Below the pieces are notes generated by a model. The model did not search any database. It saw only the letters and a list, made by a program, of their open reading frames with translations, and had not been told where the DNA came from. DNA of 64,000 bases from a bacterium. Lineage in GTDB: Bacteria; Bacteroidota; Ignavibacteria; Kapaibacteriales; Kapaibacteriaceae. A program made the translations under genes and the position numbers. Of this stretch, positions 15,068 to 60,663 are shown piece by piece. Every line of letters begins with the position of its first letter. The stretch's first letter is position 1. The stretch covers positions 8,465 to 72,464 of the forward strand of contig DAITZZ010000006.1 in assembly GCA_036840065.1 (NCBI GenBank). The letters run 5' to 3'.

Positions 15068-15162
15068 GGTCTTTCCTCGACGGTTGATCGGCACGCCGCG
15101 CAGTGCGGCCGCGTATGTTTGTGACTACGAAAGTTACCACATTTTCAGAGAGCCATCGACAC

Positions 15163-19600: not shown

Positions 19601-20845
19601 TGTGGCCCGCACATCGGCTCGATCCATCGTCGGAAACTGCTCGCGCATCATGGCAATAGTGGCGGCAACGTACGGGGCTGAGAATGACGTGCCATTGACG
19701 GTGCGGTAGCGGGAGCCGACGGACGTTGTAACAATGGCTTGGCCGGGCGCGCAGAGCGCGACCAGGGCGCCGGATGATGAGAACGGCGAACGTTGATTTT
19801 CATCATTCGTCGCAGCCACAGCGATCACGTGATCATAGCCGGCCGGGAACTGCCGGGACGTCGTGCCGGTGTTACCGACCGAGGCAACGAGCAGGCAGCC
19901 GCGTTCATGGGCGAAGCGAATCGCATCGCGCATGAGCGGAGAATCAACGCCATCGCCAAAGCTCATGTTGATGACGTCAACACCCTGTAGTGCCAGGTAT
20001 ACGATTCCGGCCGCGATGTCATCCTCCTCGGCATTGCCAGTGGCATCAAACGCCCGAACGATCCGCAGGCGCGCGTCATATGCAAGTCCGGCGATTCCTC
20101 GGCGGTTGTTGGGTGTGGCAGCAATGACGCCCCCTACCAGCGTTCCGTGTCCCTGCTCATCGAACGGGATCGGGTCATACTCCCGGTCATCGCCAAGGTT
20201 GCGTGTTGCCTGATCCACAAGGTCTATACCGATCACGTCATCAACGATGCCATTACCGTCATTGTCAAGTCCGTCAAGGTCTCCCGTCAGACCACCTATC
20301 GTATCGCGATGTGACCATGCATCGAAGCGCTGATTACCATTACGGTCTTCCGCCGGCGTGATGCTGAGCGCCCCCACCAGATCTTCATGCGTCCAGTCAA
20401 TGCCGGTATCGATGATCCCCACCACCGTGCCCTTGCCGGTTGCCCGCTGCCAGGCCCTGGCGGCACCGATGCGATGTAGCGCATACTGCCGATCGGCAAG
20501 CGAGTCATCGCTGAGGGGCTCATCATGAAGTCGAAAGCGCGACAGGGGGCGAACCTCTTCGATGCCTTCAGTGCCGGCAAGTGCGGACCAGTCCATCCCG
20601 GATGGAAGGTCGATCACGACATAGCGTGCCAGCCGATCGATAAGTGCTCGCTGGGAAGACGATTGAAGTGCATCAGCCGCCTTGCCCTGCACGAGCGCAT
20701 CGGCAATGGCCGCATGAGGCATAAACGGCAGAAGCCGCTCCGGCATCGTCCGAGAATTCAGGCGCACCAGGACACGGTTCTGAGCAAGAGCCTGACCCGT
20801 ACTGACAAGTACGGCAACAACGATGATGGTGGTGAGCAGCTTCAC
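16604..20845 (-). CDS. S8 (subtilisin) family serine protease fused to FG-GAP/VCBS-like repeats, with a C-terminal sorting-type domain
   Basis: Signal peptide and catalytic triad blocks DTGIDWTHEDL, HGTLVGGVIA and GTSFSAPYVAA. Several Ca-binding FG-GAP-like motifs (DIDGDGREEL, GDFDGDGRMEI, GDVTGDGRPDVV, HDFDGNGRREL). The tail YAYPQPL...GLYYVRV is sorting-type. Confidence 0.85.
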   Translation of the reverse strand: MKLLTTIIVVAVLVSTGQALAQNRVLVRLNSRTMPERLLPFMPHAAIADALVQGKAADALQSSSQRALIDRLARYVVIDLPSGMDWSALAGTEGIEEVRPLSRFRLHDEPLSDDSLADRQYALHRIGAARAWQRATGKGTVVGIIDTGIDWTHEDLVGALSITPAEDRNGNQRFDAWSHRDTIGGLTGDLDGLDNDGNGIVDDVIGIDLVDQATRNLGDDREYDPIPFDEQGHGTLVGGVIAATPNNRRGIAGLAYDARLRIVRAFDATGNAEEDDIAAGIVYLALQGVDVINMSFGDGVDSPLMRDAIRFAHERGCLLVASVGNTGTTSRQFPAGYDHVIAVAATNDENQRSPFSSSGALVALCAPGQAIVTTSVGSRYRTVNGTSFSAPYVAATIAMMREQFPTMDRADVRATLQQRTLDLGPRGWDDLFGAGLLQADLALADGPPSRVEITEPSNEIELDPSKTPQIDVRGSSMLASFSGYELAWAEGLAPRTWSTVATSATAVRDGLLGSVRLPASDSQVVTLRLRVLSSDGRSLDVFRRVRVAPSADLSIRSIEIVPAWKTDRRTDVVTVRTSVPCACELTSSTDTAALVQSLRRARVHSMIVPDTLGSAAEQNLLVRCWSEVGSRRDSAIEISSSRQGAGADSQWRAAGAASWSGYVLNDVRDIYRDGRSTVVMNDMSRGTFGALATRQYVDGRWITRDSIPDVYIPRGLGDANGNGLLDLLVHTVGKMVLFEQREPGGSPFASVIFADTTSGVNGAGMADIDGDGREELIGLADDECVVYTFKGTAFRLLGSITNSTPPAPGNAMNRVDEISVASGDFDGDGRMEIAFSDTDGDLVIGEWQGTRFDVTYTLTQPGSGGSGFVAQGDVTGDGRPDVVYAVPDSIEADAYGDYGRSVWTYTLLGSTADNTFEQLWKDRVAGVRYGAGFRNGLLVGDLDDVKGAEIVLCAFPRLYVFGRNRRDTSMECKRYIADVASPRFLIHDFDGNGRRELGYGTTIAEIGAMTSFLFTEPLAYELEAPSSLRAQWSGDDLQLDWIRSSADKLSVIEWAESSAPFTWLDTTNSITFSLAASSFTAPVMRFRVRALDASTGTLSSPSNTVTAVRRGSSPRVLSARDTVRRSEVQAGLIMQMIATADLDVRSLTTTMIEYVDHSGRVVGRATSVVPRSLRDMIVSFPAHEPGSSIGIGLRGVRDAQGRGLADTVIVVEVISDEPPLREITLASVTVESLRQIRVAFSEPVDQSAEQVTSYRLSPAGRIISVVRTGEATLQLLLDGERPLEPRGVPYAITATAVTSASGTKMTLGAGSTLLFTVVAPDLESVYAYPQPLRLGQHAALTIGGLPSAATVEVLDASFAPLRRLETTSGIGGIEWDLRLSDGRSLVPGLYYVRVRDESNPDAGPVLRKVWIER

Positions 20846-28323: not shown

Positions 28324-29364
28324 ATGGATCAACTCTCTCAACGGCTTGCCCACGAACGGGTTCGACGAGGACTTTCGACCTTCGATCTTGCAGAAAGAAC
28401 GAAGATACGCGAGCCGTACATCCAGGCCATCGAGAAGGCCTCCTACAACGTTCTGCCTGCCGTATACGTTCGCTCGTTTATCAGAACGATCGCCGCGGAA
28501 CTGGGTATTGCACCTAATGAGATCAACCGTCTCATCAGTCAATGCCTTGATGCAGATTCCGACTCTTCGATGCCGTCGTTCTCACAGCAACGCAGCGCCA
28601 CATCGGCGGCTTCATCAACATCGAAGGATCAACGCACCTCGGATTCGTCAGACCCTTTGACGCCGCTGCTCGAGGCGCTTCGAGCGTTTTGGTCGCGGGT
28701 CAACGTCGGCAGTGGTCGTTTCACACCGAGAACGATCTTGTTTGCTTCTATCGGTCTGATTGTCCTCATCTGCGTGGTCTGGTATCTCACCTCGCGCTCG
28801 GGGAATGGCTCTGCGACCGATGTCCCTGAAGAGATCGTCGACGTCACCGGTGCCGGCGTGGAAGACAGCCTTATCCTTTCGGCCGTATCATCGGACACCG
28901 CAGAGCTGACCATTACCATGGACGGAACACGGTATCAGAAGATCACGATGATGCCGGAGATCGAGCACCGATGGAGTGCGATGAAACGATTCACCGTCAG
29001 CAACATCTTCAACGCCGGTGCGATCCAGTTTTCTCGAGATGGACAGCCCCTTCCCCGCTACGGGAAAAGGGACGAAGTGCTGCGCGAGCTGGTGATCACC
29101 CGCACGGAGGTGATCGCATCGAATACCAGCACCAAGATGATCACCGCACCGGCTGATCCAGAACGTGCCCGTCGGGATTCGATCCGTGAGCAACAGCGTC
29201 GCGACTCTATCCGCATTCTGCGACGCCAGGAAAACCAGCGCCTTGCCCGCGAAAAGCGTGACAAACTCAAGGCGCGGTCTCGTCAGCAGCCCGCGTCGCC
29301 GATACAGCGGCCGCGGCAGCAGGAACAAACGATCACAAAGACGCCGCCACGGTCAATCCGCTAG
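28324..29364 (+). CDS. rodZ: RodZ-like cytoskeleton protein (HTH, TM, RodZ_C/DUF4115, basic tail)
   Basis: N-terminal Xre-type HTH (RRGLSTFDLAERTKIREPYIQAIE), one TM (ILFASIGLIVLICVVWYL), a DUF4115-like beta domain and an Arg-rich C-terminal tail. Confidence 0.7.
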   Translation: MDQLSQRLAHERVRRGLSTFDLAERTKIREPYIQAIEKASYNVLPAVYVRSFIRTIAAELGIAPNEINRLISQCLDADSDSSMPSFSQQRSATSAASSTSKDQRTSDSSDPLTPLLEALRAFWSRVNVGSGRFTPRTILFASIGLIVLICVVWYLTSRSGNGSATDVPEEIVDVTGAGVEDSLILSAVSSDTAELTITMDGTRYQKITMMPEIEHRWSAMKRFTVSNIFNAGAIQFSRDGQPLPRYGKRDEVLRELVITRTEVIASNTSTKMITAPADPERARRDSIREQQRRDSIRILRRQENQRLAREKRDKLKARSRQQPASPIQRPRQQEQTITKTPPRSIR

Positions 29365-29377
29365 TCGGCTCGTTCTG

Positions 29378-29477
29378 CTCCTACCCTGCCATCTGAGCGC
29401 GGACAACATCGTGCAGACGGATGACGCCAACAAGCTCTGAACCATTGATAACCGGGAGCACGCCGATGGCGCGGTGG
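29378..29477. repeat. 100-bp direct repeat, copy A (orphan copy of the kpsF 3' end)
   Basis: Hand-aligned and identical at 100/100 positions to 34182-34281. Confidence 0.95.
29381..29477 (-). pseudogene. orphan fragment equal to the last 31 codons and stop of kpsF (CBS-domain tail), with no start
   Basis: On the minus strand it encodes HRAIGVLPVINGSELVGVIRLHDVVRAQMAG*. It is preceded in frame by TAG TAA, so it cannot be translated as part of a larger ORF. Confidence 0.85.
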
Positions 29478-29506: not shown

Positions 29507-32500
29507 CTATCTGGTGATGGTGATAACCTTCGACACCGTAGTGCCCCCAGCCGTCAGCTTGCAGAAGTATGCTCCGCTTGGCACCTCGGTGCCATTGTTG
29601 GATCTTCCATCCCAGCCCAAAACGTATCGTTGAGACACTCCCTCTACGACATCATCGTAGAGCAGAATCACAGGCCGGCCTAATGCATCGATGATTTCTA
29701 AGCGCACCAGGGACCGATTCGGGCATTTGAATGACAGAACGATGCTTCCTGACGACGGATTGGGGTGAGGCTCGTCCATTGCAACATCACCATCGTTGCC
29801 CCTTGGGACGGAAACAACGCCAGAGTATGCAACTCCCGAACCCGCCTCAATCTGCCGGAGTCGATACTCAAATGCGCTATCGACTGACGCGCTCACATCC
29901 CTAAAGCTGTAGTCCATTTGCTGCGCAGATGTGCCTTTGCCGGAGACAAAACCAATTTCGCTCCATGGACGCGTCTTGCTCTGGTGGTGATCAGCGCAAG
30001 ACAGACCACGTGCACGAACATCCAGAATAGTTGCACTATCCGTTGGGCGACGGTCGATGAGGAATCCGGCATTGTTCAGCTCGGATTCCGTTTGCCAGAA
30101 GAGATCCACGGCTGCGCCTCGGCGGCGAGCGTCGAAGGCTGAGAGGACGACTGGCACGAAACACGACCACGAGTAACGCCGCGGGCGTGGTCCAAAGTAC
30201 GGCCGTATCATGGGAATCCACGACCCCTGAGTAAATGTCTCAAAACCTCTCACTGTTCCCTTGATGTCCAGATGCGGCAACAGTGGTGTGCCGCCGGTTG
30301 GCGCAAACCAATCAACAGTACCACTCGGACTCGACCTCAGATTTGCAAACAGCTGGTCATTAATCATAGTCCCGCTTCGCAGACGTCGACGAAGGTTTCT
30401 GTCTGCATAGAGCGAAAGACAGCTGTCCTTGCCCGAACCCGCTTCGGTTACCATCGTTGTCACCATTCCCATGCGGTCAGCCGATGCTCCGAGCTCAATA
30501 CCCCTTTCCGTTAGCTGACGGACACTGATCCAATACCGACCTCTGTTAAGCTTTAACGGCTTCGGCAGCTTGTAGGTGATGTTTCGTCCGAACTGTGGGC
30601 TACTTCCCGGTACGAGATCATCCATGCCGCGGAGTCTTACGATCGCGGAGCCGGGCACATCAACCAGGATCTGTTCTCCTGTCTCCATCTTGAGGCTGAT
30701 CTCAACCGGGTCGGGATTGCTGTTCAATTCTCCCCATAGCATCTGATAGCCGAGGATCGAATCGCTCGCAACGATGGTAAAGCACGCTGCAATGCGATTG
30801 CCGGGAGCATTGAGCCCCTTGCCAGCGATACCAGAGAACTGAGGCAGCGGAACGTGATTGATCGCGCTGTCGGCATCGTACTCATACGCCAGAACGCTAC
30901 CATGATTAATGACAACTCGCGTGCATGTGGAGTCATTTGCTGAATCAGCATCACTATCGGGAAAGAACAGCTTGGCGGAAATCGTGTACGCTCCTGGTGG
31001 CAAATCATCGAATCTGGCATCGGGAGACGGAAGTAAAACACTTGACATGGCTCGAAGAGTAGGAATTGTTATCGGGCGGAAATAGACGCAATTAATCCGA
31101 TCAAGATCCGAGCCATCGGGGTCACGAGTAATCCGCACGGCTACGGAAAATGACGGAGAGGCAACAGTGCTCAGATTCGAAAGTTGGAATCGAACAGGAA
31201 CGCTTCCTAGTTGAGTAGGGGGGGCCATGGTATAGGGGTGATGCAACCGAATCGAGCTCATCTCTATATCGGGGATCTCCTGCGTATACAGCACCTTAAC
31301 ATTGTCGATGAAGAAGTCGTCATTATCATCTTCGGGACCACCAGCAATCCCATGATTGAGGCAATGTGTCCGAAGACGAAAGCGGAAGTTGCGCGCCCCT
31401 TGCGCCGACCACCTAAACACCGTATCGGGAATTGGAATGAAAAGCTTCCGAAACTCAATGTCTTTACCTTCATCGTACAGATCAGGCATCAATCCCGTTC
31501 GACCCGACACGGGGTCGCTCGAGAGCTGGCGATTGTAGTCCTGGGAGTCAAATCCACGGGCATTCCCGCCCCCTCCCCAGATCTGAAATGGTTGCATGTA
31601 CTCTGCACGTCGGCCTTGGTAGTCAAGAACCCACTGCTGTACGTTGGTGATCCCGGTAACGCTATCGTCTGAAGGCCTAGCAAACTCTACAAGAAGTTTA
31701 TCCGGCTCGCGGTAGGTTTTCATTTCACCGTAAGACGTCAGCATGGCAACGCGATGTTCTGGTCCTATCAGACGCAGGTCACTAAAGCCCCTATCGGTCT
31801 TGGCACCTTTGCCCGTACGATGGTACGAGATCGATAACACAGCGCCTTTCTTCCCAAGAAGGTCTATCGGAAACGACCTCAGCTCGTCACCGCCATACTG
31901 ACCGGGCTTCGGGATTTCAGAGCCGTCATGATGTACGCGGTTCATGCGAATGACTGGTGAGTTCAACACAAATTCTGAACGATTTGCACATCTACTTGTG
32001 CCAATCGGCGGTGGGGCTAGGTAGGTAGTTCGATCACCATCGACTACTTCAGCGCCGATATTCACCCAACGAAGCGGTGATGGAATGGCCACTGAATCGA
32101 GAAGGTGAAAGCCGTCACCGGTCTCTGCTAACGTCGACAGTCGGACGAGAGCATGCAGCTTCGCCGCAATAGTATCGTCAAAAGGCCACCTGTCATCAAT
32201 AGGTGCACTTTCGCTGGTAAGAGCCTCTACAGAAACCTTCGTTAAGAGGGTTCCTACATGCTTTGCGTTTAGGGGATTGGGTTCAAATGCTGGGAACACG
32301 ACCTTGACATACTCATATGGCAGAACGGATCGTCCTGACGGCTCGTATGGTCTATTCGTACCATCAGCGTTAGCGCGAAAAGTCTGGGAAATGTTCGTGT
32401 CGCGAAGTGTCGCGTCGGTAACAACCTTCGAGACATCGTAGACGAGGTCACCGGACGAGGCGTTCAGGATACGGCATCGCACACGCATCTGTATACCCTG

Positions 32501-34090
32501 GCGCTGATAATTGACGCCAGCCGGTCCCTGAATGTCATTTGAAAGGCTCTGTACGAGCGCAACGGGTTGTAACGGACCGAGGCGTTCGTCGCCGGCCAGA
32601 ACCTCATAGCCATCGACGGACCCGGAAGGCACAATTGTAGAGTAGGCAAGGCTCGAGCCTGCCCGTTGGGAGCGGACCCGGTAAGAAACACTGACTGCAC
32701 GAACCATATTACGATGCTGCGCAAATCGCACAGCTAGCCGGTCCGATGGAAAATCACGGCCAAGCGGTGATGCTCCTGAAGGCGTCACGGCAGAGGTTGC
32801 ATCGGTATCGATGTTGTGTAGATACACAGTGCTCTGTACGTACTTCGGAACCGAATAATCAAGCACCGATAAGGCCGGTACTGATGAAGGGAATCCTGCC
32901 CAGTCGAGACGCCGTGCCGCACCGATCACCCCCACGGTTGAGTTGCATCGCATCCAGACATTTGCAGGATATGAGGTGGCTGAGAGTCTCGGGGCTGTTC
33001 CTGCAAAACGATCATACTGGACTGTCACAGAGCTGTCGGCCCCGTTCAGTGTCACCTGGACAGAAAACCGATAATGTTCACCAAACCCCGGCCGATTGTT
33101 AGCAGCAAAGGCGACCTCGGAGATGGGCTGGTTACCGATACGGGCTCGTTTCAAACCGATCGGCGTGAGATTCACAAAGTAAATCACGATTCGGTCACTG
33201 TTCGGAACACGCTTGTAATACACGCGGGAAAAGTCATCAACGCTCAGATCAGCCCCATTCACGACAGAAACCTGCAAGTCATCCCACGCCGGAGCGACTA
33301 CCTGTGGGAGGATTGATCCCCATACGGCACTGAGTCCATTGCTGTCGAGCCTGAGATTCTGCTTTGTTCGAATTCCTGCTTTCGGGCTCGATGGTGAGCC
33401 TGCACATGCTACGGCCGTGTAACCCCACGAGTCGTCCGTGGCATCTGACATTCCGTCCCCACTGCGATGGCGCGGATCATCGGACTGTGAATCGTAGGCA
33501 GAAAGAACACCTGTGCTGGCAAGACGAAGCTCCCGTGAAAGCAGGGCACCATTCACGTCAGTACGGTAGTGATAGCGTCTGTTCGAGAAAGCAATCAGGC
33601 CATTGGTGGAGATATAGAAAGAATCCTGCCGAACGCCGTTGAAACTGAATGGGAACCCAATGGCAATAGGTCCGGCAAAGGCATCATCAGTTGAATCCTT
33701 CAGGTCGCCCGGATTGCGGAAAAATGCCATGCCTCCATATGCATTTCGTCTCTGATCAGACCAAAACGAAGCATCGTATTGATTTGGTCCCGAAACGATT
33801 CGTTTCCAGGAACCTCGGTCGTTAAGCGTATCCTCAAACTCATTTGCCGAGGGCTTCCAAGGGTCTGATATGGCTTCGTCCGAATCGACGAAGTAATACC
33901 CTGATGAAACAGCCACGGCCTCACGATTATTGGCACCTGACCCGACAAAAGGCTGCGGATACGTCGAGGCTGCTGCATGTGTGTGACTTCGTCGCTGGGC
34001 AATGGCTACATCGTTCTGCTTCTCCTGCGCAGTAACGGTGTTGATATAAGAACACAACGCTACGAGATAGACAACGGCGGACTGTTTCAT
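29507..34090 (-). CDS. giant secreted protein of unknown function, T9SS type-A cargo (paralogue 1, about 1527 aa)
   Basis: Start at ATG 34090 (MKQSAVVYLVALCSYINTVTAQ) with GGAGGA 4 nt upstream. The C-terminal tail is HPNPSSGSIVLSF...SGAYFCKLTAGG...ITITR. A NIDO-like block GFPFSFNGVRQDSFYISTNGLIAF and a jelly-roll-like block ARNFRFRLR...DDFFIDNVKV are present. It is colinear with the 35237-39964 protein. Confidence 0.85.
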   Translation of the reverse strand: MKQSAVVYLVALCSYINTVTAQEKQNDVAIAQRRSHTHAAASTYPQPFVGSGANNREAVAVSSGYYFVDSDEAISDPWKPSANEFEDTLNDRGSWKRIVSGPNQYDASFWSDQRRNAYGGMAFFRNPGDLKDSTDDAFAGPIAIGFPFSFNGVRQDSFYISTNGLIAFSNRRYHYRTDVNGALLSRELRLASTGVLSAYDSQSDDPRHRSGDGMSDATDDSWGYTAVACAGSPSSPKAGIRTKQNLRLDSNGLSAVWGSILPQVVAPAWDDLQVSVVNGADLSVDDFSRVYYKRVPNSDRIVIYFVNLTPIGLKRARIGNQPISEVAFAANNRPGFGEHYRFSVQVTLNGADSSVTVQYDRFAGTAPRLSATSYPANVWMRCNSTVGVIGAARRLDWAGFPSSVPALSVLDYSVPKYVQSTVYLHNIDTDATSAVTPSGASPLGRDFPSDRLAVRFAQHRNMVRAVSVSYRVRSQRAGSSLAYSTIVPSGSVDGYEVLAGDERLGPLQPVALVQSLSNDIQGPAGVNYQRQGIQMRVRCRILNASSGDLVYDVSKVVTDATLRDTNISQTFRANADGTNRPYEPSGRSVLPYEYVKVVFPAFEPNPLNAKHVGTLLTKVSVEALTSESAPIDDRWPFDDTIAAKLHALVRLSTLAETGDGFHLLDSVAIPSPLRWVNIGAEVVDGDRTTYLAPPPIGTSRCANRSEFVLNSPVIRMNRVHHDGSEIPKPGQYGGDELRSFPIDLLGKKGAVLSISYHRTGKGAKTDRGFSDLRLIGPEHRVAMLTSYGEMKTYREPDKLLVEFARPSDDSVTGITNVQQWVLDYQGRRAEYMQPFQIWGGGGNARGFDSQDYNRQLSSDPVSGRTGLMPDLYDEGKDIEFRKLFIPIPDTVFRWSAQGARNFRFRLRTHCLNHGIAGGPEDDNDDFFIDNVKVLYTQEIPDIEMSSIRLHHPYTMAPPTQLGSVPVRFQLSNLSTVASPSFSVAVRITRDPDGSDLDRINCVYFRPITIPTLRAMSSVLLPSPDARFDDLPPGAYTISAKLFFPDSDADSANDSTCTRVVINHGSVLAYEYDADSAINHVPLPQFSGIAGKGLNAPGNRIAACFTIVASDSILGYQMLWGELNSNPDPVEISLKMETGEQILVDVPGSAIVRLRGMDDLVPGSSPQFGRNITYKLPKPLKLNRGRYWISVRQLTERGIELGASADRMGMVTTMVTEAGSGKDSCLSLYADRNLRRRLRSGTMINDQLFANLRSSPSGTVDWFAPTGGTPLLPHLDIKGTVRGFETFTQGSWIPMIRPYFGPRPRRYSWSCFVPVVLSAFDARRRGAAVDLFWQTESELNNAGFLIDRRPTDSATILDVRARGLSCADHHQSKTRPWSEIGFVSGKGTSAQQMDYSFRDVSASVDSAFEYRLRQIEAGSGVAYSGVVSVPRGNDGDVAMDEPHPNPSSGSIVLSFKCPNRSLVRLEIIDALGRPVILLYDDVVEGVSQRYVLGWDGRSNNGTEVPSGAYFCKLTAGGTTVSKVITITR

Positions 34091-34181
34091 AGTGTCCTCC
34101 ATAAAACAGCTATTGTACATCGCAGGTTACTATGGCCCTGCTGCTAACAGCTAAACATAGGCAATAATGTTACACTCGCGC

Positions 34182-34281
34182 CTCCTACCCTGCCATCTGA
34201 GCGCGGACAACATCGTGCAGACGGATGACGCCAACAAGCTCTGAACCATTGATAACCGGGAGCACGCCGATGGCGCGGTGG
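34182..34281. repeat. 100-bp direct repeat, copy B (functional 3' end of kpsF)
   Basis: Identical to 29378-29477. It starts 3 nt beyond the kpsF stop codon. Confidence 0.95.
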
Positions 34282-35159
34282 GGTGACTCCATGAGCATGA
34301 GTGCTTCGTGCAACGAGGCAGAAGAGGCAACCGTCGTCGGTGCTGCCGTCATGACGCTATCGACAGTCACGGAAGCGAAATCAACACCTCGCTCGACGAG
34401 ACGTCGAACGTCTCCATCGGTGAGAATGCCACAGATGTGCGTGCCGTCACGAACAACGCAAACGATGCCCAAAGCATGACGATCAAGCTCGTGGATGGCC
34501 GCATCCAATGTCGAGCCTGAAACGATGGAAGGCAACCCTGCTCCACTATGCATATGGTCCTTCACCTGCCGTCCAAGAAGTGAACCGATCGATCCGTGAG
34601 GATGCGTGCGCGCCAGCACATCCATTGATTCCGGCCGACGGTGAGCGATGGACATCACGAGCAGGTCGGCAACGATCAATGACGTAGTCGTGCTTGCCGT
34701 CGGCAGAATATTCATCCGATCATACTCACGGTCGATTGGCGCAACGAGGCGTATGTGCGCCCTATTGGAGAGGGTTGTTTCCCGACGTGAGGTCACCGAA
34801 AGCAATGTCACGCCCTCTTCCTTCAGAGCGTCCAGGAGACTGACGAGTTCGGCCGTCTCACCGCTCTTGGAGAACATCACCACTGCAGTTCCCTTTTGCA
34901 CAACACCAAGGTCGCCATGAAGTGCATCGGCGCTATGCATGAACGAAGCCTGAAGTCCAAGACTGGCAAGCGATGCAGCGAATTTGCGAGCGACGAAGCC
35001 GGACTTCCCTACTCCCGTAGCCACAACAGTACTGGCACTCGTGAGCGCATCGACGGCACGGTCAAACTCTTCGTTGATCTCCTTCTCAAGGAGATCAAGG
35101 GCATTGCGCTGCAGTTGCAACGCATCGACAACATCCTGCGGCAGGGGGCGAGCATTCAT
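34185..35159 (-). CDS. kpsF: KpsF/GutQ family arabinose-5-phosphate isomerase
   Basis: 324 aa with a SIS domain (GVGKSGFVARKFAASL, FSKSGET) followed by two CBS domains. Confidence 0.88.
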   Translation of the reverse strand: MNARPLPQDVVDALQLQRNALDLLEKEINEEFDRAVDALTSASTVVATGVGKSGFVARKFAASLASLGLQASFMHSADALHGDLGVVQKGTAVVMFSKSGETAELVSLLDALKEEGVTLLSVTSRRETTLSNRAHIRLVAPIDREYDRMNILPTASTTTSLIVADLLVMSIAHRRPESMDVLARTHPHGSIGSLLGRQVKDHMHSGAGLPSIVSGSTLDAAIHELDRHALGIVCVVRDGTHICGILTDGDVRRLVERGVDFASVTVDSVMTAAPTTVASSASLHEALMLMESPHRAIGVLPVINGSELVGVIRLHDVVRAQMAG

Positions 35160-35175
35160 ATCTGCGAATATCTGT

Positions 35176-35212
35176 AGAAAAAGAAAAGCCCCCGACGTAG
35201 AACGTCAGGGGC
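35176..35212 (-). terminator. rho-independent terminator after giant paralogue 2
   Basis: Minus-strand stem GCCCCUGACG / CGUCGGGGGC (one G-U pair), a 5-nt loop, then UUUUCUUUUU. It begins 25 nt after the stop at 35237. Confidence 0.75.
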
Positions 35213-35236
35213 TTTGGAATTTCCGGCTGGAAATGC

Positions 35237-38200
35237 TTAGCGCACGATGGTCAGCGTCTTCGACAAGATCGTCTCACCGACGGTGAGCTTGTACATGTAC
35301 GAACCGCTGGCAACGTCGACGCCATCTTCGCCACGACCATCCCACTCAACAGCGTATGCTGTTGATTGACCGGCTACGACATTGTCGTACACATTCTTGA
35401 CAACATTGCCCATGAGGTCAAACACTTGAAGCTTGACGCGTGAGCTTTGAGGAACCGTGAATGTGAACGTTGTCTTGCCATTCGATGGGTTTGGATAGCT
35501 ATTGTCGAGCGCGACACTTGCATTGTTACCGAACTCAACGTCGACAACATTGGAGAAGTTGTTCGCGCCACTTGCGTCGACCTGACGCAGACGGTACTGA
35601 TACGAAACTCCAGTTGTGACATCAGCATCAAAGAACTTGTAATTCAACGTCGTGTTTGAGTTGCCAGATCCAGCAACAAAACCAACGTTCTTCCAAGGAT
35701 TGTTTGCGTCTGTCGTGTTGTCGACGCAGGTAAACGATGCCTTGCCAGTTGTCAGGTTGTGTACTTCCTTGACCGCGCGGCGCTCCACATGGAAACCAAC
35801 GTTGTTCGTTTCCGATGCTGTTTCCCAGAAGAGGTCCACACCGGCAGAACGTCCCTTTGCATCAAAGAATGACAGCTCGACAGGGTTGGACTCACAGTTG
35901 ATAAACAGCGGAGGATTCGAGAACGAACGGTTTCCGAAGAACGGACGGATCAGCGGGATCCATGAACCACGTGTGAACGTAGCATAACCAAGGCTTCCAC
36001 CCATAGCGTCAAGATGCGGATAACCAGGGTTACCGATCGTTGGCGTGAATGGAACCCAGTCACCGCTGAAGCGCGTCATTTCATACGCGAAGCGGTTATC
36101 GTTCAGAAGAGATCCTGCACGATTGCGCACGCGGAAGTTCTTGTCGATAAGAAGTGAGCGGTTACCGATACCGAACACAGGAACGTCTGAGTACAGCGTC
36201 GTCACCATGCCCATACGTGTTTCCGAGGCACCGAGTTCGTAGCCTTCCGTACCCATCTGAGCAACCGATGCCCAATATTCACCCGGTGGGATGACTACTG
36301 GTGTAGCGAGCAGATACGTGACATACTTACCGAACTGAGGCTCGGTGAATGCGCCCGTTTCGTCTTCGCCACGGCGACGCAGAATCGTAGAGTTCGCGAT
36401 ACGTTCGTCACCAGGAACACCGCCCTGATCACGATACAGCGAGAACGAGATGTTCAGAACGTCTTGGTTGAGTTCTGCCCAGAAAGCCTGGTAACCAGCA
36501 AGCGTGTCCTGAGAGTAGAGTGTAAAGCGCATTGCCAGCTGACCCGAGGAGTTACCGGCATCGGCACCATACATCTGCGCACCGGCAAGCGGATTCGGGA
36601 ACGTGCCCCACGTTGAACCTGCCGTGTATTGCTGGTTAGGACCCGTCAGCAACGACTGCCACGACGAGCCGTTAGCACCGGCAGAGAATCCACCGTGATT
36701 CAGACCCTTACCCGTAACACCTGAGAACTGAATCTTCGGCACGTCGTTCGCTGGATTCGCAGGATTCGTTTCATAGGCAAACGCAGGACCAAACGTCATG
36801 CGGAACATCGTGAACGTCGAATCGTTCAGGGTGTCAAGATCGTTACCCGGGAAGAAGATGCGACCCGTGATCTTGTAGTTGCCCGGCGTCGTCGTACGGA
36901 AGTTCGCGTCTGGGAATGGCAGGATCACTTCGCGGTTTCCGGCAAGTGTCGGAACCGTAATGGAACGACAGTAGATCTGCTGCGATTCGTTTCCATCTGG
37001 CTTAATCCAGAGCTTAACCGAGAATGCCGGAGCGGCAATATTCGTGTTGTTCGAAAGCTTAACACGAATCGGAACGCGTGTTGCCTGCGAGGCCGGTGCC
37101 ATGGTGTAAGGCCAGATCAGCTGGATATTGCTGAACTCGATATCGGTGACTTCGTCCGGGAAGAGAAGCTTCACGTTATCGATGTAGAAGTTGTCTTCGT
37201 CGTCAGACGGAGCCGGAGGAATCGAATTCATCACGCAGCTTGCGCGAAGGCGGAAGCGGAAGTTACGAGCACCTTCATTGACCCAGCGAAGCACGGTGTC
37301 AGGAATTGGGATCGTGACCTTGTAGTATTCAGCATCCTTACCATCGTCGAACAGATCCTCACGCAGACCTCCAAGTGGCGGCGTCGTGGTGTTCGTCAGC
37401 TGGAGGTTGTAATCGGCAATGTCAAAACCACGAGCAAAGCCACCACCACCCCAGACCTGGAACGGCTGGAGATACTGCGTTCCGCGACCCATGTAGTCAA
37501 GGGTCCACGTCTGGATGTTTGTGATGTTAGTCAGACCGTCAAACGATGGACGAGCGAACTCGACAAGCAGACGGTCAGGATTGCGGAAGCCAGGGGTGAA
37601 ACCATTGACAGCAAGCATGTTCACGCGGTGCTCTGGTCCAATCAGACGGTTATCCGAGAAACCACGACCAATGTTCGTGAGCCTACCGGAACGCTGATAG
37701 GAGATCGAAAGAACAGCGCGCTTGCGACGGACAAGGTTGATTGGGAACGAACGAAGCTCGTCACCACCGTATTGACCGATGACCGGGATATCAACGTTTG
37801 CCAGATTGAGGCGGTTCATTCGAATGACCGGTGACTTCAGACGGAAGATGTCTGAATTCGCAGCGGCATACTCACCGCGCGGAGGAGGAGGATTATTGGT
37901 GACTTCGTCACCGTCCACAACCTCAGATTCGATGTTCACCCACTTGAGAACAGAAGGCATCGCAGCCCCACCAATGAGGTGGTACTCGTTGACGTCGTCC
38001 GAGAACGACGTCAGACGGCGCATCGAGAAAATGCGGATGCTCGTCGTGTCGTCAAAAGGCCACTGATCACCAATCGGCTGATTGATCGAGTCCTTTGGTT
38101 CGGCAATAACTGTCGTCAGAAGACGACCGATCTGATCGTCGATGAACGGATTCGGCTCGAATGGAGGGAAGATCACCTTGATGAACTCGTAAGGGAGCAC

Positions 38201-39964
38201 GAACGTGCCAGCAGGCTGATACGGCTGGTTGACACCGTTGATGTCACAGCGGAAGACCTGTGAGATGTTCGTGTCACGAAGAGCAGCGTCCGTCACAGCA
38301 CGCGAAGTGTTGTAAACGATCTTGCCTGTTGCCTCATTGACGATACGGAAACGTACGCGGAAGTTTGTGCCTTGCGGTACGTAGTTCACGCCCTGTGGAC
38401 CTTGAATGTCGTTGGTCAGGCTCTGAACAATGGCCACTGGCTGGATGGCGCCGAGGCGATCCTCACCAGCAAGCAGCTCGTAGTTGTTAGCCTGCGCTGG
38501 AGGAACAATCACCGAGAACGCGAGGTTGGCATTGCTGTTCTGCTGACGCACACGATACGACACGTTGATAACGCGAAGAACGTTGCGGAACTGCTTGAAC
38601 TTAATGGCCAGGAAGTCCTTCGGAACCGTGTTGTCGTCGTTACGCGAGCTGATAGCACGCACACCACCTGCAGGATCGACGTCCACGTTGTAGAGATACT
38701 CAGTGCTCTGCGTATACTTTGGAGCGTTGAAGTCAAGCGTCGTGATTGTCGGCATGACCGACGGGAAACCGTTCCAGCTCAGACGGCGAGCCGGACCAGT
38801 AACACCGACCGTTGAATTACAACGCATCCAGACGGTAGCGGCATACGGAGAAATTGCCGTACGTGGAGCAAGACCCGAGAATCGCTCGTACTGGATCGTT
38901 ACCGAACTGTCACTACGATTCAGCGTAACCTGGAGCGACCAGCGAAGGTGCTCTCCAAGACCGGGACGATTGTTGGCTGCGAATGTCACGTTATACTGAG
39001 GACCACCACCGGAGCGGGCTGTCTTGGCACCGATCGGTGTGAGGTTCACGTAGTAAATGACAAGCTTGTCGTTCGATGGCGAGCGCTTGTAATAGACGCG
39101 CGAGAAGTCATCGACAGCGTTGTCGTTCGGGTTGTAGACCGATACCTGAAGGTCGTCCCATGACGGCGCAATAAGTTGCGGAAGCACACCACTCCAGTTA
39201 GCCGCAATGCTATTGGCATCAAGCATGCGGTTCGTCGTCGTGCGAATACCGGCCGTTGGGCTGCCTGGATTGCCACCGCAGGCAACGTTGTTGTATCCCC
39301 AGTTGTCGAGTGTAGCGTCCGTCATCCCGTCGCCCGATCGCGAACGTGTGTCATCGGACATCGGGTCGTACGCCGAAAACACGCCAGGGCGTACTTCAAG
39401 CGACTGACGAGCAATAGGGTATCCGAACTGATCGATCGAATAGAAGTAGCGACGATTCGACAGGGCGATCAGACCGTTCGTCGACACGTAGAACGAGTCC
39501 TGGCGAACACCGTTGAAGAAGAACGGGAAACCAATCGAGATCGGTCCGGCAAAGGCGTTGTCGGTCGAGTCACGTGCGTCCCCAGGATTGCGGAAGAACG
39601 CCCAGCCACCGTAAATGTTCTGGGTCGGATCCGTCCAGTATGCTGTCGGAAGCTGCTTTGCCCCCGACAGGATTCGACGCCACGTACCTGGTTCGGTAAG
39701 GGTGTCGACAAACTGTGAAGGATCTGGGCGCCAGAAATCCGGTGCCTCGTCGTCCGAGTCCACGAAGTAATACCCCGTGGAGATGGCTGGATTCGTGCGC
39801 GCGTTCGGACCATTGGCCGTGAACGGCTGCGGATAGGACGCCACCGGCGTACGCTGTCCGCTCTTGCGCAACACGTCTTCGCCATCCTTTTCGTCGGCAG
39901 CCATAGCGAGCGAAACGCTCACAAGCCCCGTCATGAGAACAAGGAATAGCAGTCTGCGGCTCAT
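35237..39964 (-). CDS. giant secreted protein of unknown function, T9SS type-A cargo (paralogue 2, about 1575 aa)
   Basis: Start placed at ATG 39964 (MSRRLLFLVLMTGLVSVSLAMA, GAGG 7 nt upstream). The ORF-track extension to 40264 has no signal peptide and runs into purN. The tail is YPNPSNGKTTFTF...SGSYMYKLTVGE...LTIVR. It shares the conserved blocks of paralogue 1. Confidence 0.85.
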   Translation of the reverse strand: MSRRLLFLVLMTGLVSVSLAMAADEKDGEDVLRKSGQRTPVASYPQPFTANGPNARTNPAISTGYYFVDSDDEAPDFWRPDPSQFVDTLTEPGTWRRILSGAKQLPTAYWTDPTQNIYGGWAFFRNPGDARDSTDNAFAGPISIGFPFFFNGVRQDSFYVSTNGLIALSNRRYFYSIDQFGYPIARQSLEVRPGVFSAYDPMSDDTRSRSGDGMTDATLDNWGYNNVACGGNPGSPTAGIRTTTNRMLDANSIAANWSGVLPQLIAPSWDDLQVSVYNPNDNAVDDFSRVYYKRSPSNDKLVIYYVNLTPIGAKTARSGGGPQYNVTFAANNRPGLGEHLRWSLQVTLNRSDSSVTIQYERFSGLAPRTAISPYAATVWMRCNSTVGVTGPARRLSWNGFPSVMPTITTLDFNAPKYTQSTEYLYNVDVDPAGGVRAISSRNDDNTVPKDFLAIKFKQFRNVLRVINVSYRVRQQNSNANLAFSVIVPPAQANNYELLAGEDRLGAIQPVAIVQSLTNDIQGPQGVNYVPQGTNFRVRFRIVNEATGKIVYNTSRAVTDAALRDTNISQVFRCDINGVNQPYQPAGTFVLPYEFIKVIFPPFEPNPFIDDQIGRLLTTVIAEPKDSINQPIGDQWPFDDTTSIRIFSMRRLTSFSDDVNEYHLIGGAAMPSVLKWVNIESEVVDGDEVTNNPPPPRGEYAAANSDIFRLKSPVIRMNRLNLANVDIPVIGQYGGDELRSFPINLVRRKRAVLSISYQRSGRLTNIGRGFSDNRLIGPEHRVNMLAVNGFTPGFRNPDRLLVEFARPSFDGLTNITNIQTWTLDYMGRGTQYLQPFQVWGGGGFARGFDIADYNLQLTNTTTPPLGGLREDLFDDGKDAEYYKVTIPIPDTVLRWVNEGARNFRFRLRASCVMNSIPPAPSDDEDNFYIDNVKLLFPDEVTDIEFSNIQLIWPYTMAPASQATRVPIRVKLSNNTNIAAPAFSVKLWIKPDGNESQQIYCRSITVPTLAGNREVILPFPDANFRTTTPGNYKITGRIFFPGNDLDTLNDSTFTMFRMTFGPAFAYETNPANPANDVPKIQFSGVTGKGLNHGGFSAGANGSSWQSLLTGPNQQYTAGSTWGTFPNPLAGAQMYGADAGNSSGQLAMRFTLYSQDTLAGYQAFWAELNQDVLNISFSLYRDQGGVPGDERIANSTILRRRGEDETGAFTEPQFGKYVTYLLATPVVIPPGEYWASVAQMGTEGYELGASETRMGMVTTLYSDVPVFGIGNRSLLIDKNFRVRNRAGSLLNDNRFAYEMTRFSGDWVPFTPTIGNPGYPHLDAMGGSLGYATFTRGSWIPLIRPFFGNRSFSNPPLFINCESNPVELSFFDAKGRSAGVDLFWETASETNNVGFHVERRAVKEVHNLTTGKASFTCVDNTTDANNPWKNVGFVAGSGNSNTTLNYKFFDADVTTGVSYQYRLRQVDASGANNFSNVVDVEFGNNASVALDNSYPNPSNGKTTFTFTVPQSSRVKLQVFDLMGNVVKNVYDNVVAGQSTAYAVEWDGRGEDGVDVASGSYMYKLTVGETILSKTLTIVR

Positions 39965-40109
39965 GCAAACCTCGATGAAACTGTGATGAAGTATGTGTGT
40001 TTGGTTTTCACTTTGAACAGTCTTCTCTGCGATGAAGAGACGTAACAACATTGCAGAACGCACATAGTTACATGTGCAACAATGCGCTCCGCCCCTTTCA
40101 GCGTCCTTC

Positions 40110-40138
40110 AATATTCTGATTTTGGGCGAATTAGTCAA
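40110..40138 (-). promoter_or_regulatory. candidate sigma-70-type promoter for giant paralogue 2
   Basis: Minus strand reads TTGACT-N17-AATATT, about 145 nt upstream of the ATG. This is pattern only. FCB promoters often differ from this consensus. Confidence 0.3.
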
Positions 40139-40181
40139 ACAAATTTTCTGCACACGGCAAAGCAGGGGGACGGAATTAGCA

Positions 40182-40793
40182 TTAGCGATTTTCCGGTCCA
40201 GATTGTTCGATGACAACGCATTTGGCGTAGTGGTCCAACGCCCGAGGAAACAGGACGTGTTCAAGATTCTTCACACGGTCCTGAAGTTGTTCGGGTGTAT
40301 CGTCGGGAAACACCTCCACGGTTGCCTGAGAGATGATCGAGCCTTCGTCGTATTCTTCGGTCACCAGGTGCACCGTGGCACCGCTGACGGCTTCTGCCGC
40401 GGCAATGACGGCCCGATGAACGTGAATCCCGTACATCCCCTTACCACCATGATTAGGTAAAAGTGCGGGGTGTATGTTAATAACTCTGCCGTGAAGGAAA
40501 TCGATGACCTGCGGTGAAATCTTGCGCATGAAGCCAGCCAGGGCCAGAATCCCGATGCCATTGTCGTGAAGAGCCCCGATGAGGGTCCTCTCCCAGTCCG
40601 ATGGTGGCAGAATGCACATGGGAACGCCAAAATGCCGGGCAACATCGGTGATACCGGCATCGGGCCGCGTTGAAACTACTAGCACGACGCGGTACGAAGC
40701 GCCGGGTTTGAGACCGTGTTCTATCAGTGCCCGGGCATTCGTGCCGGTGCCACTGCCCAGTACGGCAACGCGAAGCGGCAAGGCGGATACCAC
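40182..40793 (-). CDS. purN: phosphoribosylglycinamide formyltransferase
   Basis: VAVLGSGTGTNARAL, NIHPALLPNHGGKGMYG and ATVHLVTEEYDEG motifs. Confidence 0.9.
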   Translation of the reverse strand: MVSALPLRVAVLGSGTGTNARALIEHGLKPGASYRVVLVVSTRPDAGITDVARHFGVPMCILPPSDWERTLIGALHDNGIGILALAGFMRKISPQVIDFLHGRVINIHPALLPNHGGKGMYGIHVHRAVIAAAEAVSGATVHLVTEEYDEGSIISQATVEVFPDDTPEQLQDRVKNLEHVLFPRALDHYAKCVVIEQSGPENR

Positions 40794-60626: not shown

Positions 60627-60663
60627 GGAGTCTCCGTTCACGGAATCTGGAAGCATTCGGTGA

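Follow-up and report, generated by a model that had tools for sequence, protein, structure and literature searches.

Type IX secretion system (T9SS) cargo proteins of type A, such as the gingipains and other cargo anchored at the surface of Porphyromonas and Tannerella, carry a Sec signal peptide and an Ig-like C-terminal sorting domain (CTD) of about 80 aa, which follows an Fn3/Ig-like module (PMC10202324, PMC7468200). In Porphyromonas and Tannerella the type-A cargo is anchored via an LPS-type glycolipid (PMC7468200). In Tannerella forsythia, the adjacent S-layer proteins TfsA and TfsB each exceed 1,100 aa; both are surface proteins that depend on the T9SS and are built from beta-rich domains (PMC4175972).

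Two proteins encoded in the window (the whole 64-kb stretch of DNA that was analyzed), here called A and B, share with type-A cargo the signal peptide, the CTD, and the preceding Fn3/Ig-like module; in both cases the organisms belong to the FCB group. The difference is that the approximately 1,400 aa upstream of the CTDs of A and B match no described family. In outline, and likened by description, TfsA/TfsB are the closest analogue of the A/B pair. However, most Kapabacteria genomes have a single copy, B has its own predicted terminator and forms no operon with A, and its evolution is very slow (dN/dS 0.033), which is not the case for typical S-layer proteins.

A second point of comparison is the NIDO domain (PF06119), which is present in animal nidogen, MUC4, SNED1, alpha-tectorin, and many bacterial secreted proteins. 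NIDO domains are not known to have a catalytic role, and in the literature we found nothing on the function of the bacterial ones.

Paralogous Proteins on Either Side of kdsD

The ORFs of B and A span positions 35237-40264 and 29507-34120, respectively, both on the minus strand. B starts with the methionine at 39964 and has 1575 aa; A most likely starts with MKQS at 34090 and has 1527 aa, and a database cluster (P0046) of the same 1527 aa is 99.9% identical to it. In a BLASTP comparison, A and B were colinear over their full length with 49% identity (781/1582, E = 0). A sequence-only reading of this DNA had described two giant colinear paralogues with kpsF as the only gene between them; the ORFs and the BLASTP alignment agree with this description, and the gene in between encodes an isomerase of the KpsF/GutQ family. 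Each of the motif blocks quoted in that reading is found once per protein, at colinear positions in A and B. The block that it had aligned by hand is indeed 73% identical; the exact count, however, is 38/52 and not 40/55. The features of the locus are listed in Table 1.

Table 1. Features of the A-kdsD-B locus, with positions in the window.
Feature	Position	Strand	Description and basis
Weak sigma-70-like promoter match	40110..40138	-	TTGACT and AATATT, 17 nt apart; within the 217-nt gap upstream of B
Protein B, conserved core copy of the family	35237..39964	-	1575 aa with a Sec signal peptide, seven domains that are all beta, and a T9SS type-A CTD
Signal peptide of B, residues 1-22	39899..39964	-	MSRRLLFLVLMTGLVSVSLAMA, AxA cleavage motif; read from translation
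D1 of B, residues ~131-450	38615..39574	-	NIDO-like beta-sandwich core with ~90 aa insertion; hhalign, pLDDT about 90
D2 of B, residues ~451-635	38060..38614	-	Ig-like beta-sandwich; AF2 secondary structure
D3 of B, residues ~636-940	37145..38059	-	Jelly-roll-like, ending FRFRLR...DDEDNFYIDNVK; AF2, Foldseek
D4 of B, residues ~941-1058	36791..37144	-	Ig-like; entirely beta with pLDDT above 90 in AF2 model 2 (residues 13-127)
D5 of B, residues ~1059-1345	35930..36790	-	Second beta-sandwich, low-confidence loop; AF2
D6 of B, residues ~1362-1480	35525..35881	-	Fn3-like module (VDLFWETASETNNVGF...YQYRLRQVD) before the CTD; AF2, motif search
T9SS type-A CTD of B	35240..35497	-	TIGR04183 34.1, PF13860 28.9, PF18962 24.2 bits
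Predicted intrinsic terminator between B and kdsD	35185..35215	-	14-bp stem, 8 GC pairs, then T-run
kdsD/kpsF, arabinose-5-phosphate isomerase, KpsF/GutQ family	34185..35159	-	Between A and B; TIGR00393; SIS + 2 CBS
Direct repeat copy 1	34182..34281	.	Genuine kdsD 3' end: last 94 nt, stop codon, and 3 nt beyond
Protein A, accessory paralogue, probably recently exchanged	29507..34090	-	1527 aa; architecture as in B
Direct repeat copy 2	29378..29477	.	100% identical to copy 1; 29 nt downstream of the A stop

Secretion Signals

Read from the translations, the signal peptide junction is MSRRLLFLVLMTGLVSVSLAMA followed by ADEK in B, and MKQSAVVYLVALCSYINTVTA followed by QEK in A; the N-terminus of B is disordered in the AF2 model. 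With a cut-off of 23 bits, the NCBIfam model for the "T9SS type A sorting domain" (TIGR04183) matched the C-terminal ~80 aa of A with 25.9 bits and of B with 34.1 bits. The Pfam model PF18962 stayed under its gathering score of 27 in both proteins (20.7 and 24.2 bits for A and B, respectively), and PF13860 (FlgD_ig) scored 28.9 bits on B. PF18962 is recorded in most database homologues and matched 23 of the 31 family members that we scanned with E values up to 10. The earlier claim of signal peptides and C-terminal sorting domains in both paralogues thus holds, and the combination supports the assignment of A and B as T9SS type-A cargo. Two further proteins in the window (13730-15094 and 58164-60656) contain a Por_Secre_tail domain; genes for the T9SS machinery were not found within the 64 kb.

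Domain Architecture and Structural Models

AF2 models of B were calculated for residues 23-950 (pLDDT 87.6, pTM 0.80) and residues 930-1575 (model 2; pLDDT 89.4, pTM 0.68). Together they consist of seven domains, all of them beta. A conserved N-terminal extension with the GYYFVDSD motif (residues 23-130) precedes D1. D4 may be CARDB-like, and about 49 aa of D5 are missing from protein A. In the family alignment, Asp, Arg, Asn, Tyr, and Trp are invariant at dozens of positions in D1 and D3, and many of the invariant residues of D3 are acidic.

Searches of A, B, and 31 family members against Pfam and NCBIfam returned nothing outside the CTD. Sequence searches of the PDB, run with the family profile as well as with B by itself, had the same outcome; the matches of the profile (PorU and FlgD Ig-like chains) were confined to the CTD. 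Foldseek searches with both models against the PDB, and with the first model against BFVD, returned generic beta-sandwich, CBM, Eph-LBD, MAM-containing, Ig, and MG-domain proteins at low TM and no enzyme core; because the queries were multi-domain models, a weak match of a single domain to an enzyme could have escaped. D2 matched Ig sandwiches of the PDE6D/RhoGDI type with a target-normalized TM of about 0.45-0.5, and one S-layer chain (7ptp) was among the generic Ig-chain matches. The expectation that no catalytic domain would be recognizable was therefore borne out by Pfam, NCBIfam, PDB, and Foldseek, and a motif search confirmed that HExxH is absent from A and B. The profile searches and structure prediction that had been proposed as a check gave confident all-beta models and family matches to the CTD only.

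The Pfam NIDO model (gathering score 25 bits) did not match A or B with E values up to 10; weak matches were found in a single full-length member out of 31 (E 0.058) and in a single D1 segment out of 20 (E 0.012). Compared by hhalign to NIDO regions, which had been chosen by the same profile, the D1 profile matched over 132 columns with a probability of 99.6% (E 8.8e-25). Among the distant matches of the D1 profile were proteins in which the matched region scores above threshold with Pfam NIDO (P0212, P0217, P0223, and P0249 with 36.7, 41.2, 35.3, and 34.1 bits, respectively). The two domains are in register through FPFxFxG..YDSFYVSTNG, IAPFWDDL, GxVYYK, and FQVxLN..DSSVxxxY, and D1, like NIDO, lies N-terminally in a large extracellular protein. 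D1 differs from NIDO by its insertion of ~90 aa and by the N-terminal extension of ~110 aa, and A and B remain below the Pfam threshold. At the profile level, the core of D1 is homologous to NIDO, as the sequence-only reading had guessed from the motif. Since NIDO has no established molecular function, this match supplies no mechanism.

The second guess, of a MAM/ConA-like jelly roll, fared less well. MAM (PF00629) and LamG had no match in the 31 family members with E values up to 10. In Foldseek, the putative jelly roll D3 matched an Eph-LBD, a CBM (2c26), and the MAM-containing enteropeptidase (8zi4) with E values from 1e-4 to 1e-2, a target-normalized TM of at most 0.5, and a multi-domain query; at this TM the likeness to MAM, Eph-LBD, and CBM is one of fold class only. 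It is to that extent weakly supported, and the Pfam sequence match is lacking. D3 of B ends with an acidic DDxDxF(Y/F)IDNV strand, which is typical of the jelly rolls of these three groups.

Distribution and Selection

About 247 relatives were found among GTDB species genomes, and a search with the D1 profile returned 185 matches in 1.84 billion representative proteins. The labels of the relatives that we inspected were all Kapabacteria, Ignavibacteria-type, or Bacteroidota. B occurs almost throughout the class, usually as one copy; some lineages have two to three tandem copies. In MAGs of Kapabacteria, orthologues that are 40-97% identical share its syntenic position, in a block with the order purN-B-kdsD-rodZ-like...purM-recQ, which comprises about ten unrelated housekeeping genes, atuA and a GT2 gene among them. 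The D1-D5 plus CTD architecture is retained at 29-31% identity. The literature on the T9SS and outer membrane of Kapabacteria and on bacterial NIDO domains yielded nothing on this family. The family is narrow and, as had been supposed, uncharacterized (Pfam, NCBIfam, and PDB). Its distribution and substitution pattern mark B as a core gene throughout the class Kapabacteria (Bacteroidota), under very strong purifying selection.

The dN/dS of B, determined in comparison to the relative L001, is 0.033; that of metH is 0.052. A value at the level of metabolic enzymes favors an alternative in which B is a secreted or surface enzyme (a polysaccharide lyase, glycosidase, or peptidase) with its catalytic center in an unrecognized all-beta D1 or D3, the remaining domains being carbohydrate-binding or spacer modules. 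The invariant acidic, aromatic, and Arg residues do cluster in D1 and D3, and the pTM of the first model suggests a compact multi-domain body. CBM structures and a "putative glycoside hydrolase" of the BT_2081 type are among the best Foldseek matches. The low TM of the Foldseek matches, which are to non-catalytic sandwiches, the lack of sequence matches outside the CTD, the absence of HExxH, and the kinship of D1 to a domain with no known catalytic role all speak against an enzyme. We regard this alternative as rather doubtful.

The strong constraint and the near-universal, usually single-copy occurrence would also fit a lineage-specific core component of the envelope or of the T9SS itself, an analogue of PorU or PorZ instead of an ordinary cargo protein. 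PorU and PorZ retain their CTDs and remain at the surface. The C-terminus of B scored higher with the C-terminal region of the PorU model (41.1 bits, E 4.7e-11) than with the generic CTD model (34.1 bits), and the PorU structure 6za2 was among both the fold matches and the sequence matches. This similarity is confined to the CTD, though, and B has neither peptidase C25 nor beta-propeller domains. In the loci examined the family is not linked to T9SS genes, and cargo fits better with the tandem copies of some lineages and with a horizontally exchanged accessory copy (see below). We consider a PorU or PorZ analogue very unlikely.

The kdsD Neighborhood

The product of kdsD matched TIGR00393 with 210.1 bits (cut-off 203.7) and contains a SIS domain (E 6e-21) and CBS domains in two stretches (E 7e-16). 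The sequence-only reading had proposed, as a speculation, that both paralogues form a module with this gene, in which Kdo/LPS synthesis is coupled to the anchoring of the cargo. The glycolipid anchor of type-A cargo in Porphyromonas and Tannerella (PMC7468200) counts in favor of such a module. So does gene order: in 44 of 56 related loci (27/27 in the close clade and 17/29 in distant lineages), including lineages at ~41% protein identity, the gene that immediately follows a family member is kdsD, so the adjacency that the proposal required is present in relatives.

Other properties of these loci argue against the module. In most of 43 related loci, the gap between B and kdsD contains a strong GC-rich hairpin followed by a T-run, with stem sequences that differ between loci; in distant lineages this spacer measures 440-660 nt. 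The sigma-70-like match upstream of B (Table 1) is weak evidence; promoter-like sites are no more numerous here than in shuffled sequences. Given its own upstream spacer and the conserved predicted terminator, B is predicted to be transcribed independently. The adjacency itself is part of the housekeeping block described above, and it is absent from 12 of the 29 distant loci, from loci with tandem copies, from the sister-family locus L077, and from L049, a locus in a complete genome. In L049 and L077 the neighbors, either other cargo or unrelated housekeeping genes, include no conserved partner in place of kdsD. As a general LPS-core gene, kdsD is needed whatever the cargo. Depending on the start codon, 64-94 nt separate the end of kdsD from A, and no terminator is predicted between them; A is, however, a recent insertion that close relatives lack (see below), so that its position flanking kdsD is a by-product. 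With B a core gene that has its own predicted terminator and A a recent extra copy, the locus does not have the appearance of a functional module with kdsD. We consider the proposed coupling extremely improbable; kdsD is a neighbor of B and no demonstrated functional partner.

Protein A as an Inserted Copy

A is absent from the close relatives L002, L003, L004, and L040; the B of one relative without A is 96% identical to the B analyzed here. The A gene is bracketed by a direct repeat of 100 nt (Table 1), and the ancestral spacer between kdsD and the rodZ-like gene follows the second copy. The possibility that the repeat is an assembly artefact was rejected, because the same pair of repeats is present in the independent MAG L001 (97% identity, 3 mismatches). 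In the comparison to L001, nucleotide identity rises stepwise across the A cassette, between about 34265 and 29466. In this comparison the dS of A is 0.048, about ten times lower than that of the backbone (0.32-0.55), which indicates a recent horizontal exchange. A recent in situ tandem duplication of B was rejected as the origin of A: the two proteins share no more than 49% identity, while A is ~98% identical in nucleotides when genomes with backbones of 82-94% identity are compared. These data indicate that A is an accessory gene that was recently exchanged between related lineages.

Discussion

The explanation that we favor, and to which we give about an even chance as a whole, is that B is a vertically inherited, T9SS-exported, non-enzymatic structural or ligand-binding surface protein, and A an inserted variant of it. 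B would be the founding member of a Kapabacteria-specific all-beta family of ~1,550 aa. Export would take it first through Sec and next through the T9SS; as for other type-A cargo, it would be attached to the surface after removal of the CTD. Its compact body (from the N-terminus: NIDO-like, Ig-like, jelly-roll-like and rich in invariant acidic residues, again Ig-like, another beta-sandwich, Fn3-like) may serve as a coat subunit or as an adhesin that binds glycans or matrix. A would be a fast-diverging accessory paralogue; a recombination that duplicated 100 nt of kdsD would have placed it at the 3' end of this gene. Exchanged recently between related lineages, it probably provides a variant surface specificity.

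The signal peptides, the CTDs, the other CTD-bearing cargo in the window, and the all-beta models without an enzyme core are consistent with surface cargo. The very strong purifying selection and the dozens of invariant residues in D1 and D3 count against a non-enzymatic role. Adhesins and S-layer proteins normally evolve fast; the constraint on B therefore fits an enzyme or a component of a machine equally well. A further reading takes B as an essential, Kapabacteria-defining component of the envelope, either as a new class of all-beta enzyme that targets glycans of the cell's own surface or a polymer from the environment, or as a scaffold linked to the attachment step of the T9SS; this we consider distinctly unlikely.

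The current understanding of T9SS cargo is not overturned by these results. A is a clean natural single-gene cassette, located at a 100-nt duplication of the 3' end of a housekeeping gene and probably excisable through this duplication; its exchange between lineages appears far more recent than the divergence of the backbone. The members of the B family are large putative surface proteins that are specific to their class and highly constrained; about 1,400 of their residues lie outside the curated families and are modeled with confidence. B is a good target for studying the role of what may be the dominant exported protein in an uncultured freshwater lineage of Bacteroidota. The family also connects bacterial proteins with the functionally obscure NIDO domain of animals; should B prove to be an envelope component, its NIDO-like domain would be the first tractable bacterial handle on the function of NIDO.

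Paralogous cargo proteins at the locus

Three co-oriented genes occupy the region, all on the minus strand: those for proteins A and B and, between them, kdsD/kpsF, a KpsF/GutQ-family arabinose-5-phosphate isomerase gene. A and B are paralogues and carry the signals of T9SS cargo. The sequence-only reading had described two colinear giant paralogues flanking kpsF, and the comparison confirmed this: the proteins align colinearly over their whole length, with 49% identity (781/1582). Each motif it listed occurs once in A and once in B, at matching positions; the strong identity of a block it had aligned by hand stood, with the count revised to 38 of 52 residues. The mechanical ORF of B extends to a TTG at 40264, and the signal peptide starts at the methionine at 39964. 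The length of A is counted from MKQS; database cluster P0046, 99.9% identical to A, is exactly 1527 aa long. The product of the middle gene passed the KpsF/GutQ model (210.1 bits versus 203.7) and contains SIS and two CBS domains, in agreement with its earlier naming.

Positions of the three genes in the window and of the domains in protein B
Feature	Window position	Strand	Length or B residues
Protein B	35237-39964	-	1575 aa
kdsD/kpsF	34185-35159	-	324 aa
Protein A	29507-34090	-	1527 aa
Signal peptide			1-22
N-terminal extension			23-130
D1			~131-450
D2, Ig-like			~451-635
D3, jelly roll			~636-940
D4, Ig-like			~941-1058
D5, second sandwich			~1059-1345
D6, Fn3-like			~1362-1480
C-terminal sorting domain (CTD)			~1490-1575

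Both proteins begin with a typical Sec signal peptide, and their ~80-aa C-terminal domains passed NCBIfam TIGR04183 ("T9SS type A sorting domain", cut-off 23 bits) with 25.9 bits for A and 34.1 for B, as expected from the signal peptides and Por-type sorting domains recognized earlier. Pfam Por_Secre_tail was slightly sub-threshold for both, and FlgD_ig matched B with 28.9 bits. A and B are probably exported and then surface-anchored. The same tail is also found on other proteins of the window; no T9SS machinery genes were detected within its 64 kb. The window also encodes three other secreted proteins: a BNR/sortilin-like protein with a Por_Secre_tail (13730-15094(-)), a 1413-aa S8 subtilase with FG-GAP repeats (16604-20845(-)), and an Ig-rich 830-aa protein with a Por_Secre_tail (58164-60656(-)). 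An HTH_25 protein (28324-29364(+)) is convergent on A; its HTH_25 domain is presumably of the type typical of the cytoskeletal protein RodZ.

Domain architecture

The architecture is all-beta and includes a NIDO-like domain. Two AlphaFold2 models of B, calculated from 108-sequence alignments, were confident and essentially all-beta (residues 23-950, pLDDT 87.6, pTM 0.80; residues 930-1575, pLDDT 89.4, pTM 0.68); the domain boundaries in the table are our own reading of these models. In Foldseek searches against the PDB, the N-terminal half matched BT_2081-type "putative glycoside hydrolases", MAM-containing enteropeptidase, Eph ligand-binding domains, a CBM, and PDE6D/RhoGDI; the C-terminal half matched transglutaminase C-terminal barrels, complement/alpha-2-macroglobulin MG domains, PorU, and one S-layer chain. 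All were generic sandwiches with low TM-scores, the queries being multi-domain, and no catalytic fold was recognized with these query models. A BFVD structure search gave no useful match. The HExxH motif is absent from both sequences, as had been stated, and the proposed MAM/ConA-like character of D3 stood as a resemblance of fold class and no further.

Pfam NIDO did not match A or B, and matched weakly in one of 31 full-length family members and one of 20 D1 segments. Positions ~105-145 of the D1 profile matched many large secreted proteins, and in several of these, positions ~277-383 matched colinearly as well; four of the nine profile matches scanned were above the Pfam NIDO threshold. Using hhalign, the D1 profile matched an alignment of NIDO regions with 99.6% probability (E 8.8e-25), with the motifs FPFxFNG..YDSFYVSTNG, IAPFWDDL, G(K/R)VYYK, and QVxLN..DSSVTxxY in register. 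Because of this in-register match we assign D1, from sequence profiles, as a NIDO-like domain with a ~90-aa insertion. Since the hhalign targets were picked with the same D1 profile, the homology is at the superfamily level and not Pfam membership; at that level the earlier NIDO-like guess is borne out.

Family and distribution

With B residues 1-1360 as query, a word-indexed search returned 327 relatives. The best 120 of these are nearly all 1,400-1,620 aa long (three are shorter) and 40-97% identical over their full length; they are unnamed or named "hypothetical", "T9SS type A sorting domain-containing", or "FlgD ig", and their sources are labeled Kapabacteria, Ignavibacteria, or Bacteroidota. 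Scanning GTDB genomes, one per species, gave 247 stretches that encode such proteins, of which 76 loci (L numbers below) were retained, all in MAGs of this Kapabacteria lineage; Kapaibacterium belongs to Bacteroidota in the NCBI taxonomy. Several MAG records with the Kapabacteria-type gene block (L003, L006, L015, L019, L022, and others) are labeled Chitinophaga pinensis, Patescibacteria, Hyphomicrobiales, or Bradyrhizobiaceae, which look like binning or labeling errors.

When 1.84 billion cluster representatives were searched exhaustively with HMMER, the D1 profile matched only 185 proteins at E <= 1e-3 (67 at E <= 1e-30), which makes this a narrow, lineage-specific family. The order D1-D5 plus CTD is kept in remoter relatives at 29-31% identity, so the ~1,300-aa body is a single evolutionary unit and not a shuffled mosaic. 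A sister family (~1,150-1,300 aa, ~29% identity, same domain order) comprises P0173 (L077, 6001-9915) and its relatives P0175, P0185, P0187, P0188, P0195, P0197, P0200, and P0203. P0173, the sole member directly compared, has neither the Fn3-like module nor the insertion in D1, and its gene sits amid those of an S8 peptidase and a BNR protein, which are T9SS cargo as well.

Protein A as a transferred cassette

The gene of protein A is accessory and forms a cassette that was transferred recently. Among the close relatives it is present in L001 alone; in L002, L003, L004, and L040, kdsD is followed directly by the rodZ-like gene. The site is unoccupied in L003 even though its B is 96% identical to that of the window. 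A perfect 100-nt direct repeat, which is the 3' end of kdsD, brackets A (34182-34281 and 29378-29477), and the sequence past the second copy is the kdsD-to-rodZ-like spacer of the L003 empty site. The same repeat pair, at 97% identity, is present in L001 (15684-15783 and 20489-20588); L001 comes from another sample, so the repeat pair cannot be an artefact of assembly.

When the window is compared with L001, dS is 0.32-0.55 for ten backbone genes and 0.048 for A, and nucleotide identity steps up from backbone values of 0.82-0.94 to 0.955-1.00 within the cassette (from about 34265 to 29466). A was therefore exchanged much more recently than the backbones diverged, and the comparison indicates a recent horizontal exchange of this single-gene cassette between the two lineages. 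Recombination through homology to the kdsD 3' end would be the simplest route of entry, and recombination between the repeats would restore the empty site.

Neighbor-joining places the A-type copies, including those of L011 and L029, whose nearest relative is A, in a small clade whose sister group is the B-type clade of their own sub-lineage. Divergence is much faster among the A-type copies: A is ~50% identical to the L011 copy, whereas the corresponding value for B is 84%. Other lineages have two to three tandem paralogues, with kdsD neither between nor after them: three copies in L038, L039, and L043, two full-length copies and a third cut by the contig end in L075, and two copies in L051, L063, L073, L074, and L076. 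The paralogue pairs fall into matching sub-clades (L073/L074/L076 and L051/L063), which points to older duplications.

Gene order and the link to kpsF

We traced the window's neighboring genes by tblastn against the 76 loci. They form a single block, purN - B - kdsD - HTH_25 (rodZ-like) - hyp - atuA - DUF2279 - GT2 - purM - recQ, kept from 97% to ~41% B identity. Where flanking sequence sufficed, kdsD followed a family member in 44/56 loci (27/27 close, 17/29 distant); the adjacency on which the sequence-only reading had based a surface module of A, B, and kpsF is thus real. One sub-clade (L009, L010, L012-L015, L017, L020, L022, L032, L033, L035) has an extra ~2.5-3 kb between metH and purN, absent from the window.

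A 14-bp GC-rich hairpin followed by a T-run, predicted to be a terminator for B alone, separates the stop of B from the start of kdsD. Of 43 loci, most have a similarly strong hairpin before a T-run in this gap, with differing stem sequences, and the spacers are 440-660 nt long in distant lineages. The block around B and kdsD consists of unrelated housekeeping genes. Loci without adjacent kdsD (L049, L077) have no other conserved partner: the family gene neighbors nadA/nadC/purE and ispH/cmk in L049 and other cargo in L077. The gap hairpin, the housekeeping block, and the lack of an alternative partner argue that the adjacency is inherited gene order and not functional. With A a recent insertion as well, a functional module with kpsF is the least likely reading of the locus.

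Selection and possible function

For B, dN/dS is 0.033, 0.030, and 0.037 against L001, L003, and L040, respectively; the flanking genes metH, atuA, kdsD, and purN have 0.052, 0.032, 0.15, and 0.17, and A has 0.23, at very low divergence. B is the core, constrained family member, and by these ratios its constraint is that of a core enzyme. Nucleotide identity between B and its L001 counterpart is a mosaic, with patches of 0.97-0.985 (38465-38664 and 39865-40064, within B and its upstream spacer) amid stretches of 0.82-0.86, which suggests recombination tracts inside this core gene too.

The strong constraint on B keeps two readings alive, an unrecognized enzyme and a lineage-specific envelope or T9SS-associated component. 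We infer that the role of A and B is structural or binding; the two proteins represent a new, uncharacterized family among the large T9SS surface cargo.
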